From: a virus
Taxonomy: Duplodnaviria; Heunggongvirae; Uroviricota; Caudoviricetes
IMG/VR virus record: IMGVR_UViG_2645727640_000047
Location: 1-6,492 of that record
Length of the DNA stretch: 6,492 nt
Direction: 5' to 3' (one strand)
The position numbers were made by a program, and so were the translations under genes. This document shows positions 1 to 5,520 of this stretch, in pieces. Position 1 is the stretch's first letter, and every line of letters begins with the position of its first letter. The notes below the pieces were generated by a model, which was not told the DNA's origin, ran no database searches, and saw nothing but the letters and a program-made list of their open reading frames with translations.

Positions 1-35
1 CTGTTATAAATATCTTTTATATCAGTATATTATAG

Positions 36-204
36 GGTGAACAGTTATTTATGAACTGTTCACCAAACTATTCACTGTTCACCTTTTTGATTGTTTATTG
101 AGCTTCAAGGGTGAACAGTGGTGAACAGTTGGTGAATAGTTTTTGTGAAACTGTTCACCCCTTAACATTATGAATTAAAAGATAAAATATCAAAAGGTGA
201 ACAG
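36..204. repeat. Iteron cluster of a P4 alpha-type replication origin (ori/crr-like): octamer TGTTCACC in both orientations
   Basis: Seen in sequence: TGTTCACC at 57-64, 76-83 and 152-159; its reverse complement GGTGAACA at 36-43, 110-117, 120-127 and 196-203; one degenerate copy GGTGAATA at 131-138. An AT-rich stretch at 161-195 could be the unwinding element. Established knowledge: TGTTCACC is the type I iteron bound by the phage P4 alpha primase-helicase at ori and crr. Confidence 0.7.
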
Positions 205-301
205 GTGAAGGGTTAAAACGCAAAAATTTTAATTTACTGCTGTGAGATAAAGCCTATGACAGCGAAGCACATAAAAAAAATCACAATCGCACGCCCTTGA
301 T

Positions 302-502
302 TTGACGGAACACTGGTTAAGGGTGTCGATAAAAATCATCGACCGCAACGCCGGGGAAGGATATGCGAAAGCACATCCCGAACTGATTAGCGCATTCATG
401 ACAACGGCAGCTGCAAACTTTGCCACGCTGACAGAACGGGAGATTGCCGAAGCGGAACAGGTGACAACCATCAACGTTAAAACCGGAGAGCAGACAGCAT
501 GA
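302..502 (+). CDS. Hypothetical small protein; start uncertain (TTG 302, GTG 323 or ATG 398, all in frame)
   Basis: ORF in the track; its TGA stop (500-502) overlaps the ATG (499-501) of the next gene in an ATGA arrangement, suggesting translational coupling. No family recognised. The antisense ORF 229-474 is judged less likely because the plus-strand genes form a coupled operon. Confidence 0.35.
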   Translation: MTEHWLRVSIKIIDRNAGEGYAKAHPELISAFMTTAAANFATLTEREIAEAEQVTTINVKTGEQTA

Positions 503-921
503 CAGCACAGATAGCGGCTTACGGGCGGCTGGTGGCTGACCCGCAGTTAAAGACCACCAGCAAGGGTACACAAATGACGATGGCGAGTATGGCGGTCCCA
601 CTTCCGTGCAGCCAGGCAGATGACGGAACGGCGACGATGTGGTTATCCGTCCTGGCGTTTGGCAGACAGGCCGAAGCACTGGCAAAGCACCGCAAGGGTG
701 AACTCCTGAGCGTGGCGGGTAACATGCAGGTGAGCCAGTGGACCGGACAGAACGGGGAGACGCGGCAGGGCTGGCAGGTTATCGCAGACAGCGTAATCAG
801 TGCGAGAACGGCGCGACCGGGCGGCAAAAAAGGCCAACAGGGGCAGGCTACTGATGCACTGAGCAGAGCAAAACAACAGGCGGGAAATGATGATCCGTAC
901 GGGGATAACATACCGTTTTAA
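499..921 (+). CDS. ssb: Single-stranded DNA-binding protein (SSB family), 140 aa
   Basis: The translation has an OB-fold-like core (VLAFGRQAEALAKHRKGELLSVAGNMQVSQWTGQNGETR, compare E. coli SSB [39 protein letters not shown]), a Gly/Gln-rich linker and a C-terminal tip DDPYGDNIPF (compare E. coli SSB DFDDDIPF). A GGAGAG Shine-Dalgarno lies about 9 nt upstream, and a terminator follows. Confidence 0.75.
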   Translation: MTAQIAAYGRLVADPQLKTTSKGTQMTMASMAVPLPCSQADDGTATMWLSVLAFGRQAEALAKHRKGELLSVAGNMQVSQWTGQNGETRQGWQVIADSVISARTARPGGKKGQQGQATDALSRAKQQAGNDDPYGDNIPF

Positions 922-936
922 GCAACGAGTAACAGA

Positions 937-959
937 AGCCGGAGCAATCCGGCTTTTTT
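937..959 (+). terminator. Rho-independent terminator after the ssb-like gene
   Basis: Stem AGCCGGA (937-943), loop GCAA, stem TCCGGCT (948-954), followed by a T-run through 959; it sits 16 nt after the stop codon. Confidence 0.6.
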
Positions 960-977
960 ATGGGTCCTCCCGGTGTA

Positions 978-1186
978 GTGACCTGCCACGGGGCGGGAGC
1001 GGCGCGGAAAAAGGCTAGTTTTTGCATTTTCATTCGTCATCATCATCTTTCTATAATGTTGAATTTTAAGTGTTTTTATTTTTGGTATGTTAATTTTGCT
1101 TGTTTTGTGTTCAACATACAGCGCGTTTTTTGACCTTTTTTAAAAGATATTTGCAAGATGCATTTTTAAAACATTCTGGAGCGGGT
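978..1186 (+). promoter_or_regulatory. Candidate lambda-like cos region (cosN-like 988-1003, AT-rich cosB-like 1020-1180) upstream of the Nu1-like gene; contains a perfect TATAAT at 1052-1057
   Basis: ACGGGGCGG at 988-996 is identical to the 9-mer that, as recalled, spans the lambda cosN nick (right end ...TTACG joined to left end GGGCGGCGACCT). It lies about 196 nt upstream of the Nu1-like ATG at 1187; lambda Nu1 starts at nt 191. TCGTCAT and GTTTTTATTT motifs recalled from lambda cosB also occur (1034-1040, 1072-1081). The right half of the putative cosN differs from lambda (GAGCGG versus CGACCT). Confidence 0.4.
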
Positions 1187-1672
1187 ATGGATCGGGAACT
1201 GAAAAATCTGATGCTGAACATTAACCAGCTGGCGGCGATAGCGGGAATATGTCGCCAGACTGCGGCGGCAAGGCTGAAAAATATCCAGCCAGCCGGAGGA
1301 CATGACAAGCTGAAACTCTATCGGGTGACTGACATTCTGACTTGTTTTCTTGATCTTCCCGTTCCGGCATCACTGGAAGAAATGGAGCCACACGACCGTA
1401 AGGCCTGGTATCAGTCCGAACGTGAGCGCCTCAAGTTCGAACAGGAAACGGCGCAACTCATACCCGCCGATGATGTGCGAAAAGAGATGGCTATATGGGG
1501 AGAAATCGTAAGCGAGGAACTGGAAAAACTCCCCAGTATTCTGGCACGTGATGTTGGGCTTAAACCGATGGCAGTAAACAGAGTGCAGTCAATTATTGAC
1601 GATTTGTGTAATCAGATTATCAGCCGGATGGTAAAAAATGACGTAGTGAATGAGGTCGCAAAACAGGCATGA
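1187..1672 (+). CDS. Nu1-like terminase small subunit (N-terminal HTH), 161 aa; start set at the ATG with a GGAG Shine-Dalgarno rather than the track's TTG at 1100
   Basis: The N-terminal LNINQLAAIAGICRQTAAARLKNIQPA matches the lambda gpNu1 HTH pattern VNKKQLADIFGASIRTIQNWQEQGMPV (Q-L-A-x-I-x-G-...-T-...-P). The size is similar (161 versus 181 aa). A GGAG lies 8 nt upstream of ATG 1187. The gene sits downstream of the cos-like sequence as in lambdoid phages. Confidence 0.55.
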   Translation: MDRELKNLMLNINQLAAIAGICRQTAAARLKNIQPAGGHDKLKLYRVTDILTCFLDLPVPASLEEMEPHDRKAWYQSERERLKFEQETAQLIPADDVRKEMAIWGEIVSEELEKLPSILARDVGLKPMAVNRVQSIIDDLCNQIISRMVKNDVVNEVAKQA

Positions 1673-1956
1673 TAATGACCGAATCTGAAATACTGCGATT
1701 AATCCGCTGTGCTGGTGGAATTAGCCAGTTGGCTGACGAACAGGCCGCGCAGCCGGATACAGTCACCGCTGAAAATTACGCGCGTGTGGTGGCTGAGGTG
1801 ATGCGCCGTGACGGTATTGAGCTTAACGGCGTGGATATGCGCAACATACGAACCAGAGTCCTTGAGTTGCTGGCATACCGTCGCCGTTCTCAACAACGGA
1901 GGGAGAGCGCGAAAAATACTTATCAGTGGAAGAAGCCGGAATGGTTGCGGCGGTAA
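1669..1956 (+). CDS. Hypothetical 95-aa protein translationally coupled to the Nu1-like gene; weak resemblance to the N-terminal segment of lambda gpA (terminase large subunit)
   Basis: Its ATG (1669-1671) overlaps the upstream TGA (1670-1672). The N-terminus MIMTESEILRLIRCAGG...QPDTVTAENYA loosely parallels lambda gpA MNISNSQVNRLRHFVRAGL...PQTAVEWADANYY. It occupies the position that terL holds in lambdoid phages but is only 95 aa. Confidence 0.45.
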   Translation: MIMTESEILRLIRCAGGISQLADEQAAQPDTVTAENYARVVAEVMRRDGIELNGVDMRNIRTRVLELLAYRRRSQQRRESAKNTYQWKKPEWLRR

Positions 1957-2001
1957 TTTGTTGATATTCCTGATAGCGCAAAAGTGCGTTGGCTGGTGGG
2001 T

Positions 2002-2021
2002 GAGTTGCAGATCTGCAACTC
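2002..2021. repeat. Perfect 20-bp palindrome GAGTTGCAGATCTGCAACTC with a central GATC
   Basis: The reverse complement is identical to the forward sequence. It lies 46 bp after the stop of the last island ORF. Either a dimeric-protein operator/recognition site or a hairpin; the central GATC is a Dam site. Confidence 0.5.
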
Positions 2022-2040
2022 GACCATGAAATTACGGAAA

Positions 2041-2223
2041 CTACCCGTAGTTTGGGTAGTAAGAGTAACACCCAGATTTTGGGGCTTACTCGCGATACCC
2101 AAATAAAGGGTATCTGTGGAAGAAATATCGTTTCTCATATGTGAGTACCGAGGGCGGAATTCCGCCTTCGGTTACTTATTGTGCTCATGCACAGGGAGGG
2201 GCGGGTCAAATCCCTGTGACCTG
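2041..2223. other. Non-coding cluster of inverted repeats / hairpins at the right border of the inserted element
   Basis: CTACCC...GGGTAG (2041-2059); GATACCC-7nt-GGGTATC (2094-2114); perfect 14-bp palindrome GGCGGAATTCCGCC (2153-2166) extended by wobble to ACCGAG/TTCGGT (2147-2172); CACAGGGA-13nt-TCCCTGTG (2190-2218). Contains GGGGCGGG (2198-2205) and GTGACCTG (2216-2223), both also present at 978-997. No credible ORF. Confidence 0.45.
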
Positions 2224-2362
2224 ACGTCTTCCGGACTGCCAGCCCCATCGATTTTTTATACCCGCGAAAAATGAAAAACGCTTCACGCTGGTGGGCCTGA
2301 TGCCGATAACTGGTTTCATGACTGATAGCCGGAAAATGATAACGATTAAAGCGTGTTGATCT

Positions 2363-2419
2363 TTGTTCGTGGTTGTTCGATATTGTTCGTGGAACGGTGT
2401 AGTTAATGGTGTAGTTAAT
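2363..2419. repeat. Direct repeats: TTGTTCGTGG (2363-2372, 2383-2392; partial TTGTTCGA 2373-2380) and tandem GGTGTAGTTAAT (2396-2407, 2408-2419)
   Basis: Seen directly in sequence. The arrangement resembles arm-type recombinase or regulator binding sites next to an integration junction; the function is not established. Confidence 0.4.
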
Positions 2420-2592
2420 TTTACTGTTTTTGACGAGCTTATTGTTTGCAACTCAATGAAAAATAAAGGCTAATAAGCCAAATGCTATAAATGATAGTTA
2501 TCTATCATGTGGAGTAGATTGGTCAGGCAAATAAGCTCTTGTCAGCGGCAGGGCGTTCTGCCGATAACCGTAACCGAAGATGATAACTGACA

Positions 2593-2943: not shown

Positions 2944-5220
2944 ATGCTCAATCAAGAACTGGAACTCAGTTTAAATATGGCTTTCGCCAGAGCGCGCGAG
3001 CACCGTCATGAGTTTATGACCGTCGAGCACTTGTTACTGGCGCTGCTCAGTAACCCATCTGCCCGGGAGGCGCTGGAAGCGTGTTCTGTGGATTTGGTTG
3101 CGCTCCGTCAGGAACTGGAAGCCTTTATTGAACAAACCACACCCGTTCTGCCTGCCAGTGAAGAGGAGCGCGACACACAGCCGACGCTGAGTTTTCAGCG
3201 TGTACTGCAACGTGCGGTCTTCCATGTCCAATCCTCCGGTCGCAATGAGGTAACCGGTGCAAACGTTCTGGTCGCTATCTTTAGCGAACAGGAGTCGCAG
3301 GCGGCATATCTGTTGCGTAAACATGAAGTCAGCCGTCTCGATGTGGTGAACTTTATCTCTCATGGCACGCGTAAAGACGAGCCGACACAGTCTTCTGATC
3401 CTGGCAGCCAGCCAAACAGCGAAGAACAAGCTGGTGGGGAGGAACGTATGGAGAATTTCACGACGAACCTGAATCAGCTTGCGCGCGTGGGCGGAATCGA
3501 CCCACTGATTGGTCGTGAGAAGGAGCTGGAGCGTGCTATTCAGGTTCTCTGCCGTCGCCGTAAAAACAACCCGCTGCTGGTGGGGGAATCTGGTGTCGGT
3601 AAAACCGCGATTGCGGAAGGTCTTGCCTGGCGAATTGTTCAGGGCGATGTGCCGGAAGTGATGGCTGACTGTACGATTTACTCTCTCGATATCGGTTCTC
3701 TGTTAGCGGGCACTAAATATCGCGGCGACTTTGAAAAACGTTTTAAAGCGTTGCTCAAGCAGCTGGAGCAGGACACTAACAGCATCCTGTTTATTGATGA
3801 GATCCACACCATTATCGGTGCGGGGGCAGCGTCTGGTGGCCAGGTCGATGCGGCTAACCTGATCAAACCGTTGCTCTCCAGCGGTAAAATTCGCGTAATT
3901 GGTTCGACAACCTATCAGGAGTTCAGCAACATTTTCGAGAAAGACCGTGCTCTGGCGCGTCGCTTCCAGAAAATTGATATTACTGAACCGTCGATCGAAG
4001 AAACTGTTCAAATCATCAATGGCCTGAAACCGAAGTATGAAGCGCACCACGACGTGCGTTATACCGCAAAAGCGGTGCGTGCAGCGGTAGAGCTGGCGGT
4101 GAAATACATTAACGATCGTCATCTGCCGGATAAAGCCATTGACGTTATCGACGAAGCGGGCGCTCGCGCACGCCTGATGCCGGTAAGCAAACGCAAGAAA
4201 ACCGTTAATGTGGCGGATATTGAGTCCGTGGTGGCCCGTATTGCGCGCATTCCAGAGAAGAGTGTTTCTCAGAGTGACCGCGATACCCTGAAAAACCTCG
4301 GCGATCGCCTGAAAATGCTGGTCTTCGGTCAGGATAAAGCCATTGAGGCGCTGACTGAAGCCATTAAGATGGCGCGTGCAGGTTTAGGTCACGAACATAA
4401 ACCGGTTGGTTCGTTCCTGTTTGCCGGCCCTACCGGGGTCGGGAAAACAGAGGTGACGGTACAGCTTTCGAAAGCGTTGGGCATTGAGCTGCTGCGCTTT
4501 GATATGTCCGAGTATATGGAACGCCATACCGTCAGCCGTCTGATTGGTGCGCCTCCGGGATACGTTGGTTTTGATCAGGGAGGTTTGCTGACTGATGCGG
4601 TCATCAAGCATCCACATGCGGTGCTGTTGCTGGACGAAATCGAGAAAGCGCATCCGGACGTGTTCAATATTCTGTTGCAGGTGATGGACAACGGTACGCT
4701 GACCGATAACAACGGACGCAAAGCGGACTTCCGTAACGTGGTGCTGGTGATGACCACCAACGCCGGGGTACGTGAAACTGAGCGTAAATCCATTGGTCTT
4801 ATCCACCAGGATAACAGCACCGATGCGATGGAGGAGATCAAGAAGATCTTTACACCGGAATTCCGTAACCGTCTCGACAACATTATCTGGTTTGATCATC
4901 TGTCAACCGACGTGATCCATCAGGTGGTGGATAAATTCATCGTCGAGTTGCAGGTTCAGCTGGATCAGAAAGGTGTTTCTCTGGAAGTGAGCCAGGAAGC
5001 GCGTAACTGGCTGGCCGAGAAAGGTTACGACCGGGCAATGGGCGCACGTCCGATGGCGCGTGTCATCCAGGACAACCTGAAAAAACCGCTCGCCAACGAA
5101 CTGCTGTTTGGTTCGCTGGTGGACGGCGGTCAGGTCACCGTCGCGCTGGATAAAGAGAAAAATGAGCTGACTTACGGATTCCAGAGTGCACAAAAGCACA
5201 AGGCGGAAGCAGCGCATTAA
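2944..5220 (+). CDS. clpA: ATP-dependent Clp protease ATP-binding subunit ClpA, 758 aa
   Basis: The translation begins [35 protein letters not shown] and has two AAA+ modules with Walker A motifs ([16 protein letters not shown]). A strong Shine-Dalgarno GGGGGAGG (2931-2938) lies 5 nt before ATG 2944; the track's TTG start at 2929 is not used. Confidence 0.96.
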
Positions 5221-5432: not shown

Positions 5433-5520
5433 GTTCACTGCCATACAGGCAGCTTAGAAATCGACGGGGTGCGGTAAAACCTTTGCGAACGCGTTCACTG
5501 CCGTACAGACAGATAAAATG
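5433..5520 (+). CRISPR. Orphan type I-F CRISPR mini-array: 2 repeats, 1 spacer, no cas genes in the window
   Basis: Repeat 1 GTTCACTGCCATACAGGCAGCTTAGAAA (5433-5460); 32-bp spacer TCGACGGGGTGCGGTAAAACCTTTGCGAACGC (5461-5492); degenerate terminal repeat GTTCACTGCCGTACAGACAGATAAAATG (5493-5520). The repeat matches the 28-bp Ypest/I-F consensus GTTCACTGCCGTACAGGCAGCTTAGAAA with one mismatch. An AT-rich leader-like region lies at 5290-5432. The clpA-infA position is the known E. coli CRISPR3/4 (I-F) locus. Confidence 0.85.

Follow-up and report, generated by a model that had tools for sequence, protein, structure and literature searches.

What are the clustered short direct repeats at positions 2363-2419 of this stretch, upstream of clpS, and which proteins would read them? 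The original prediction, made from the letters alone, took them for integrase arm-type sites or regulator binding arrays. Reading the whole stretch of 6,492 nt (the window) allowed us to separate two repeat types. Three in-phase 10-bp units occupy 2363-2392 and read TTGTTCGTGG / TTGTTCGATA / TTGTTCGTGG, which bears out the predicted unit that occurs twice with a partial third copy between; in full, the units are ctTTGTTCGTGG (2363-2372), TTGTTCGATA (2373-2382, matching at 7/10 positions) and TTGTTCGTGG (2383-2392). The second type is GGTGTAGTTAAT, present at 2396-2407 and again at 2408-2419 as a perfect tandem that is followed by ttt. The tandem duplication that had been predicted is thus a perfect 12-bp doublet, but it does not follow the first array directly, as a 3-nt gap (AAC) lies between them. 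Tandem Repeats Finder and a repeat search agree on three copies of period 10 and two copies of period 12 with 100% match, and the only other tandem arrays in the 6.5-kb window are replication iterons at 110-141. We very probably see here the attR-side arm of the attachment site of a phage-inducible chromosomal island (PICI) with a P4-family integrase, laid out as follows.

2363..2392, + strand: motif A array, with the TTGTTCG heptamer conserved; proposed to be an operator for another protein of the island, with the AlpA-family regulator/excision factor as the likeliest candidate
2396..2419, + strand: motif B, GGTGTAGTTAAT twice at a 12-bp period; on the attR side of attP, proposed arm-type sites to which the P4-family integrase would bind with its N-terminal domain
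2420..2490, + strand: AT-rich spacer of ~71 bp from doublet to core; sequence variable, length conserved
2491..2508, + strand: attR core, imperfect palindrome ATGATAG-TTAT-CTATCAT, from attB/attL/attR comparison; the chromosome starts here

The repeats had been placed near a probable island/chromosome junction, with the proviso that their presence at the same position in island-free genomes would make them native clpS-upstream sequence, and the K-12 cspD-clpS region had been named as the comparison to make. When 2150-2700 was compared by megablast with 5,426 complete E. coli genomes, nearly all matched only from ~2487 on; a full-length match was found in only 175 of them, and the clpS-site arm is present in ~367-370. 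The K-12-like empty site reads gatagATGATAGTTATCTATCATgtggag and contains neither repeat type. Since homology to island-free genomes starts at ~2487 and the empty site is devoid of the repeats, they are island DNA beside the junction, and not native sequence upstream of clpS. Native clpS/clpA regulation, or a chance cluster, would be an explanation in keeping with the closeness of the clpS start codon (2593), and we regard its probability as negligible. Besides the absence from empty sites in more than 5,000 genomes, a three-copy in-phase array like motif A arose in 0 of 300 first-order Markov resamples of the window, and a perfect 12+12 tandem is expected ~4e-4 times per 6.5 kb (6492 x 4^-12). 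In a comparison of seven clpS-site alleles of the arm, the 24-nt doublet did not vary and the TTGTTCG heptamers hardly did, whereas the spacer of ~70 bp beside the doublet drifts in sequence and carries indels. The same doublet is also found at phoQ, smrA and other insertion sites. Native regulation and chance were rejected on these grounds.

Comparison of the empty site, attL and attR puts the att core, ATGATAGTTATCTATCAT, at 2491-2508, inside the interval of about 2420-2590 where it had been expected. The core is an 18-bp imperfect palindrome common to all three sites, with one T for C in attL, and its position follows from its being common to the attR and attL junctions. The two junctions have an 11-bp identity block, ATGATAGTTAT, at 2491-2501. 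Set against each other, the attL core of locus L001 (5848-5865) and the window (2491-2508) read ATGATAGTTAT[T/C]TATCAT, with T in attL and C in attR and attB, which puts strand exchange within the left 11 bp of the palindrome. The repeats lie in the arm that flanks this crossover core, outside the attB identity block, and the doublet ends 71 bp before 2491. The ~71-bp spacer in between is probably a DNA-bending segment of the arm; a search of the window allele's spacer for the IHF consensus with at most one mismatch gave no match, and two relatives have perfect IHF consensus sites there.

An ~8-kb PICI-type phage satellite sits between yljB and clpS in E. coli, and window 1-2490 is its right part; the right two-thirds of the window hold E. 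coli clpS (2593-2913), clpA, tRNA-Ser and infA. The closest full relative (L076) matches window 2300-2520 without a difference; its island, 8,058 bp long from core to core, has genes for a tyrosine integrase, an AlpA-family protein, an icd-like protein, DUF4222, a D5-type primase, ssb, DUF1441 and one hypothetical ORF. Pfam assigns to the integrase an Arm-DNA-bind_3 domain (PF13356, residues 8-96, E=1.4e-16) and a Phage_integrase domain, and the gene next to it is Phage_AlpA. Downstream of the point at which the primase gene of relatives ends, eight copies of the iteron GGTGAACAG, seven of them exact, lie on both strands at 36-204, with the tandem run at 110-141; they are probably the iterons of the satellite's replication origin. 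Gene set and iterons together give the gene plan of a gram-negative PICI, and the island agrees with what is expected of one: an int-alpA-pri-ori backbone, genes that all run in one direction, a length in the range of ~8-15 kb, an att site of its own, and neither lysis nor tail genes. A reading of the repeats at 2363-2419 as replication iterons was rejected, the iterons of this island being GGTGAACAG at 36-204.

Some further features of the window were recorded alongside. In strain 1223 and many others, a 1.9-kb gene for a ClpP-like protease/major-capsid fusion lies between ssb and DUF1441 (L001 12236-15038). The window's island does not have it, and the homology of most relatives to the window starts at 954; members of this island family thus occur both with a capsid gene and without one. 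After the ssb terminator, at the place of extra genes in relatives, a single GGTGTAGTGAC at 967-977 agrees with the 12-bp doublet unit at 9 of its first 11 positions, and this copy is probably not meaningful. The noncoding stretch from the last island ORF to the att arm (1957-2300) contains several strong palindromes.

~2002-2021: palindrome GAGTTGCAGATCTGCAACTC
~2040-2060: palindrome ACTACCCGTAGTTTGGGTAGT
~2150-2169: palindrome GAGGGCGGAATTCCGCCTTC
~2192-2218: palindrome ACAGGGA...TCCCTGT around GGGGCGGG

Parts of this stretch are in common with a capsid-forming PICI (L003 15670-15790). The palindromes could be packaging (cos-like) or RNA elements; an Rfam search that covered the window's island part, palindromes included, gave no match to an RNA family. 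Directly left of the att arm, a conserved block, GGATAGCCGGAAAATGATAACGGTTAAAG (window 2318-2350), is preceded in relatives by CATCCACCAGCTTCAT. The block recurs at L004 15375-15412, L012 25345-25380 and L018 1500-1535, where integrases and insertion sites differ, and it seems to lie where the cargo meets the int/att module. Between 2293-2343 and 2551-2587 (the clpS leader) there are two short collinear similarities, GGGCCTGATGCCGATAAC / GGGCGTTCTGCCGATAAC and GAAAATGATAAC / GAAGATGATAAC, which are probably due to chance because the island block also occurs at other insertion sites. On the chromosomal side, an Rfam match to CRISPR-DR4 (5433-5460, 45.8 bits, GTTCACTGCCATACAGGCAGCTTAGAAA) and a degenerate second repeat one spacer on (~5487-5514) sit between clpA and tRNA-Ser; the window contains no cas genes, and the pair looks like an orphan type I-F CRISPR remnant.

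The same repeats had also been predicted to appear near the left end of the element, and both motifs are indeed found there, between the attL core and the integrase start codon. From the core, the attL arm begins core-ctaGTGTTCGCGG GTGTTCGTGG ... ccTTGTTCGCTC TTGTTCGTCA cggtttgccc ttgtacgatg cac, and after cac it continues with GGTGTAGTCAAT GGTGTAGTTAAT - 23 bp - ATG (int). It thus carries GGTGTAGTCAATGGTGTAGTTAAT as well as TTGTTCG repeats, so that the motifs stand on both arms. The left doublet is co-oriented with the right one and lies 22-23 bp upstream of the int start codon, and in both arms the 10-bp phase of the A units stops 3 nt before the doublet. Exact GGTGTAGTYAAT occurs four times in a 32.5-kb locus with the whole island, each time in one of the tandem pairs of the two att arms. 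Closed into a circle, attP has the order [A x3][B x2] - ~71-bp AT-rich spacer - core ATGATAGTTATCTATCAT - [A x2] - spacer - [A x2-4][B x2] - 23 bp - int start, with the doublets of the window's island at ~-80 and +129 to +132 from the attP centre.

Two natural recombinants reveal which module the repeats belong to. The first, the capsid-forming PICI L003, has capsid, portal and terminase (TerS/TerL) genes of its own and lacks DUF1441; its integrase and integration site are the same as here, and it likewise has window 2315-2490 and, at both ends, both motifs. The second, L004, has the same ssb/DUF1441 cargo (its homology to the window ends near 1973) together with another P4-type integrase, at tRNA-Pro, and its arm repeats, likewise of 12-bp period, are different ones, TTTAGCTACACG TTTAGCTATACG. 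The repeats at 2363-2419 thus go with the int/att module and not with the packaging cargo, and this linkage speaks against both a packaging role and clpS regulation. Under a packaging role, the repeats would be cosB-type R elements read by a small-terminase/Rpp-like complex. PICIs of this group do have cos sites near the right end with an unusual cosB, and the repeats lie downstream of the DUF1441 gene and of the GC-rich palindromes at 2000-2225. However, they are present in L003, which has its own TerS/TerL and no DUF1441, and absent from L004, where the DUF1441 module is joined to another integrase; the same motifs adjoin int at the opposite end of the island, and the DUF1441 protein has no sequence match to solved Rpp chains. 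As the repeats follow int and neither DUF1441 nor TerS, we consider the cosB reading highly improbable and rejected it.

The reading as an attachment-site arm extends to other integrases. We compared integrase relatives with 92%, 79%, 77% and 70% DNA identity, from the sites clpS, roxA-phoQ, tqsA and rcnR-thiM with unrelated cores. In all compared clades the attR side consists of a 10-bp-phased TTGTTYN array, a 12-bp doublet, a spacer of ~60-75 bp and the core, and the attL side of the core, A units, a spacer, A units and a doublet, with the int start 22-23 bp further on (in one clade 36 bp). The two doublets of the reconstructed attP, measured end to start, lie 209-210 bp, or ~20 helical turns, apart in 4/4 int clades with unrelated cores. 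Much the same context is found in IMG/VR, where all 58 exact doublets (58/58) stand behind an A array in an attL-type or attR-type setting.

Doublet sequence changes together with the integrase. Among 79 IMG/VR loci, Int with LSVRHSTSGLL always goes with GGTGTAGTYAAT and Int with LSVKYLTSGKL always with GGTGTAGTCAYT (18 and 12 doublets). In L008 and L011, AlpA is identical, the Int N-terminal regions are 78% identical and the doublets are GGTGTAGTTAAT versus GGTGTAGTCACT. The clpS-site and phoQ-site integrases have the segment LSVRHSTSGLLTWYFTYR in common and use the same doublet, and their AlpA proteins are only 55% identical. The sample for this covariation came from a viral-contig alignment scan that returned close relatives only (74-100% identity), most of them cut at the int start, and no new integrase clades; a genome-contig scan with the integrase found only two unrelated distant recombinases. 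Since the clades are few and related, and the observations not phylogenetically independent, the covariation counts as support and not as proof. Within this limited number of independent clades, the motif is distinct from the core sites and changes with the integrase, not with cargo or integration site.

The location of the repeats, their duplication at both ends, their conservation, their covariation with the integrase and their linkage to the int module are thus matters of observation; which protein binds which motif, and with what regulatory consequences, we infer by comparison with known systems. For the doublet, the closest of these is P4, whose record (NC_001609) annotates 12-bp tandem 'attP arm sequence repeats' in both arms (Pierson and Kahn 1987, as cited in PMC7286903). 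The P4 arms read AGTGGGGGCACA AAAGGGGGCATA ... core ... ATTGGGGGCATA ATTGGGGGCATC, and the right pair ends 15 bp before the int ATG (NC_001609). The island's attP has this P4-type architecture of one co-oriented 12-bp doublet per arm, one of them just upstream of int, while sequence and exact distances differ. Like P4, the island combines an Arm-DNA-bind_3 integrase, an AlpA/Vis-family gene and an int-proximal doublet 15-23 bp from the int start. Unlike P4, its repeat sequence is unrelated (GGGGGCAT core versus GTGTAGTTAA) and its doublets are spaced at ~77-80/129-132 bp instead of 63.5/122.5 bp. P4 additionally has an extra inverted copy over the ATG and no 10-bp arrays of the TTGTTCG type, and the integrases are only ~23-25% identical.

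A second precedent is found in helper-embedded PICIs, where a doubled motif with a 12-bp period, tgTGTATTGCantgTGTATTGCa, lies at -81 and +132 bp from the attP centre and where integrase arm domains or AlpA have been suggested as its binder (PMC10111431, 2023). As in those elements, two co-oriented doublets of 12-bp period per attP occur here in a gram-negative setting with Int and AlpA encoded; the doublet sequence and the integrase clade differ, and a second, 10-bp-phased motif is present here too. The doubled tgTGTATTGCantgTGTATTGCa motif was stated not to be found in other PICIs (PMC10111431). Against that statement, an analogous doublet is present in at least four further integrase clades, EcCICFT073 included. 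That island, the prototype gram-negative PICI (PMC6092414), resembles the window's island in gene order, in Int (~79% DNA identity), in a related AlpA, in the same B doublet in both arms and in its A arrays. It differs in its site (roxA-phoQ), in an AlpA allele that is 55% identical and in its late genes, and it has a strong A array upstream of alpA that is missing from the window's island.

On the strength of this P4/PICI geometry, of the covariation with the Int N-terminal signature and of the Arm-DNA-bind_3 domain in the cognate integrase, the 12-bp doublet is a candidate arm-type site of the P4-family integrase, and a better candidate for that role than the TTGTTCG array. Judged from sequence, both alternatives of the original prediction find support: the doublet may represent the integrase arm-type sites, and the TTGTTCG array, which looks like an operator for another protein, may represent the regulator binding array. 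A search of the PDB by sequence retrieved no solved arm-binding domain related to Int. In the mechanism that we propose, the four B half-sites (two per arm, co-oriented, 209-210 bp apart) would be bound by the Arm-DNA-bind_3 domains of an integrase tetramer, whose catalytic domains would sit on the inverted core repeats to form the intasome for integration and excision.

Bound integrase would probably also repress its own gene. P4 Int autoregulates via sites near its own promoter, and for KplE1, binding and repression by integrase and excision factor have been demonstrated, with IntS repressing its own gene near the promoter (PMC2951348). Motifs and integrase family differ from those of KplE1; as there, int points away from attL, and the region upstream of int is full of what the geometry suggests are Int arm-type and excision-factor sites, and this KplE1-like layout predicts negative autoregulation. 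With the left doublet no more than 22-23 bp away from the int start, any int promoter would have to overlap the doublet and A units or else be located upstream of these. When both arms were scanned for sigma-70 sites and terminators, neither a promoter-like site nor a sigma-70 consensus came up, and it is therefore from the distance only that autoregulation of int is suggested.

The TTGTTCG 10-bp-phased array is a second site class, distinct from the doublet. We scanned for A arrays with a position-weight matrix, requiring three in-phase copies and taking the 95th percentile of null maxima as the threshold. Only three kinds of place gave arrays: att arms, the int-alpA intergenic region and, in capsid-forming PICIs, the stretch before the capsid operon. 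The flanking chromosome (~20 kb per locus), P4, the empty site and L004 gave none. Islands at the phoQ and tqsA sites have an array just downstream of int on the opposite strand, and in capsid-forming PICIs one follows directly after a terminator, ~215 bp upstream of the capsid gene. Those outside the arms are as follows.

L075 (EcCICFT073) 3682-3741 and 3943-3972, opposite strand: A arrays downstream of int, upstream of alpA
L003 8504-8533: A array after terminator, upstream of capsid operon
L010 22301-22330: A array after terminator, upstream of capsid operon
L011 22866-22895: A array after terminator, upstream of capsid operon

AlpA is the most likely binder of these arrays, with about an even chance of being the right one. 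This assignment draws on the AlpA-activated region of EcCICFT073, on the repeat spacing of excision factors and on a pattern like that of the lambda Xis sites. The int-alpA intergenic region of EcCICFT073 contains six A copies, plus three at 55-85 bp upstream of the alpA start; its promoter is activated by AlpA, and AlpA overexpression triggers excision and replication (PMC6092414). According to PMC7498355, excision factors typically bind direct repeats one helical turn apart. Such direct repeats lie here next to the doublet, in an element that encodes alpA.

The lambda attP, for its part, has arm-type Int sites on its P and P' arms and an Xis array, X1-X1.5-X2, between arm site and core. Much like that Xis array, the A array consists of direct repeats at helical-turn spacing, with two good sites around a degenerate middle one, and abuts an Int arm site; a heterobivalent integrase with arm sites on both arms is a further likeness to lambda. 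The A array departs from the lambda arrangement in its placement: seen from the core it lies beyond the doublet, it occurs on both arms, and it is present at internal promoters too, whereas Xis sites are found on one arm only, on the core side; the arm-binding domain is also of another family. Its position beyond the doublet counts against AlpA as the binder. Two exact copies around a degenerate one, 3 nt from the doublet on both arms, would suit a winged-helix protein of the excisionase type, and AlpA on this array would act together with integrase at the arms and switch on promoters in other parts of the island. With AlpA as query, a PDB search gave an unpublished AlpA-family entry, 8c3t, as its sole match, and the literature searched yielded no definition of AlpA binding sites in PICIs.

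A less likely alternative, which leaves B as the integrase site, is that motif A serves the integrase as an arm site of a second class, or that a host winged-helix factor which recognises 10-bp-phased direct repeats binds it (OmpR/PhoB-type, TorR-box-like). TTGTTCGATA and TTGTTCAT seem to resemble the TorR box, CTGTTCATAT. Capsid-forming PICIs with either of two AlpA types, only 55% identical to each other, have one and the same array before the capsid operon, and islands with the window's AlpA type have no strong array upstream of alpA but only a weak, conserved GTTCG-phased one. In EcCICFT073, moreover, expression of a Pint reporter is unchanged by AlpA (PMC6092414), and A arrays flank Pint. 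However, the restriction of A arrays to island DNA argues against a host factor or integrase as binder, the arrays cluster in the sole PICI region that is experimentally AlpA-responsive, and the recognition-helix region is nearly identical in the two AlpA types. A second arm-site class would also be unusual, as heterobivalent integrases such as those of lambda and P4 normally use one arm-site consensus. AlpA thus remains our preferred binder of motif A.

The repeats are a known kind of recombination site and stand for no new type of element and no new kind of biology. What is modestly new is the P4-style paired arm doublet common to several PICI integrase clades, the model island EcCICFT073 included, the conserved composite module of A array and doublet, and a candidate AlpA operator that is concrete and testable. 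The exact right boundary and the core are now fixed for a satellite widespread in E. coli, and for PICIs as delivery vehicles the likely attR-side limits of attP enclose ~140 bp (roughly 2349-2508). A broader proposal, which we put forward tentatively and at somewhat less than an even chance, is that the TTGTTCG arrays are the unmapped target of AlpA, the master activator, as one type of operator placed at the arms (at a 3-nt offset from the doublets), at the alpA promoter and at late/capsid operons, and that one doublet per arm, ~20 turns apart, is the general attP design of P4-type PICI integrases. If this holds, a single helper-induced protein would couple excision to transcription, and the general doublet design would contradict the published confinement of such motifs to helper-embedded PICIs (PMC10111431).
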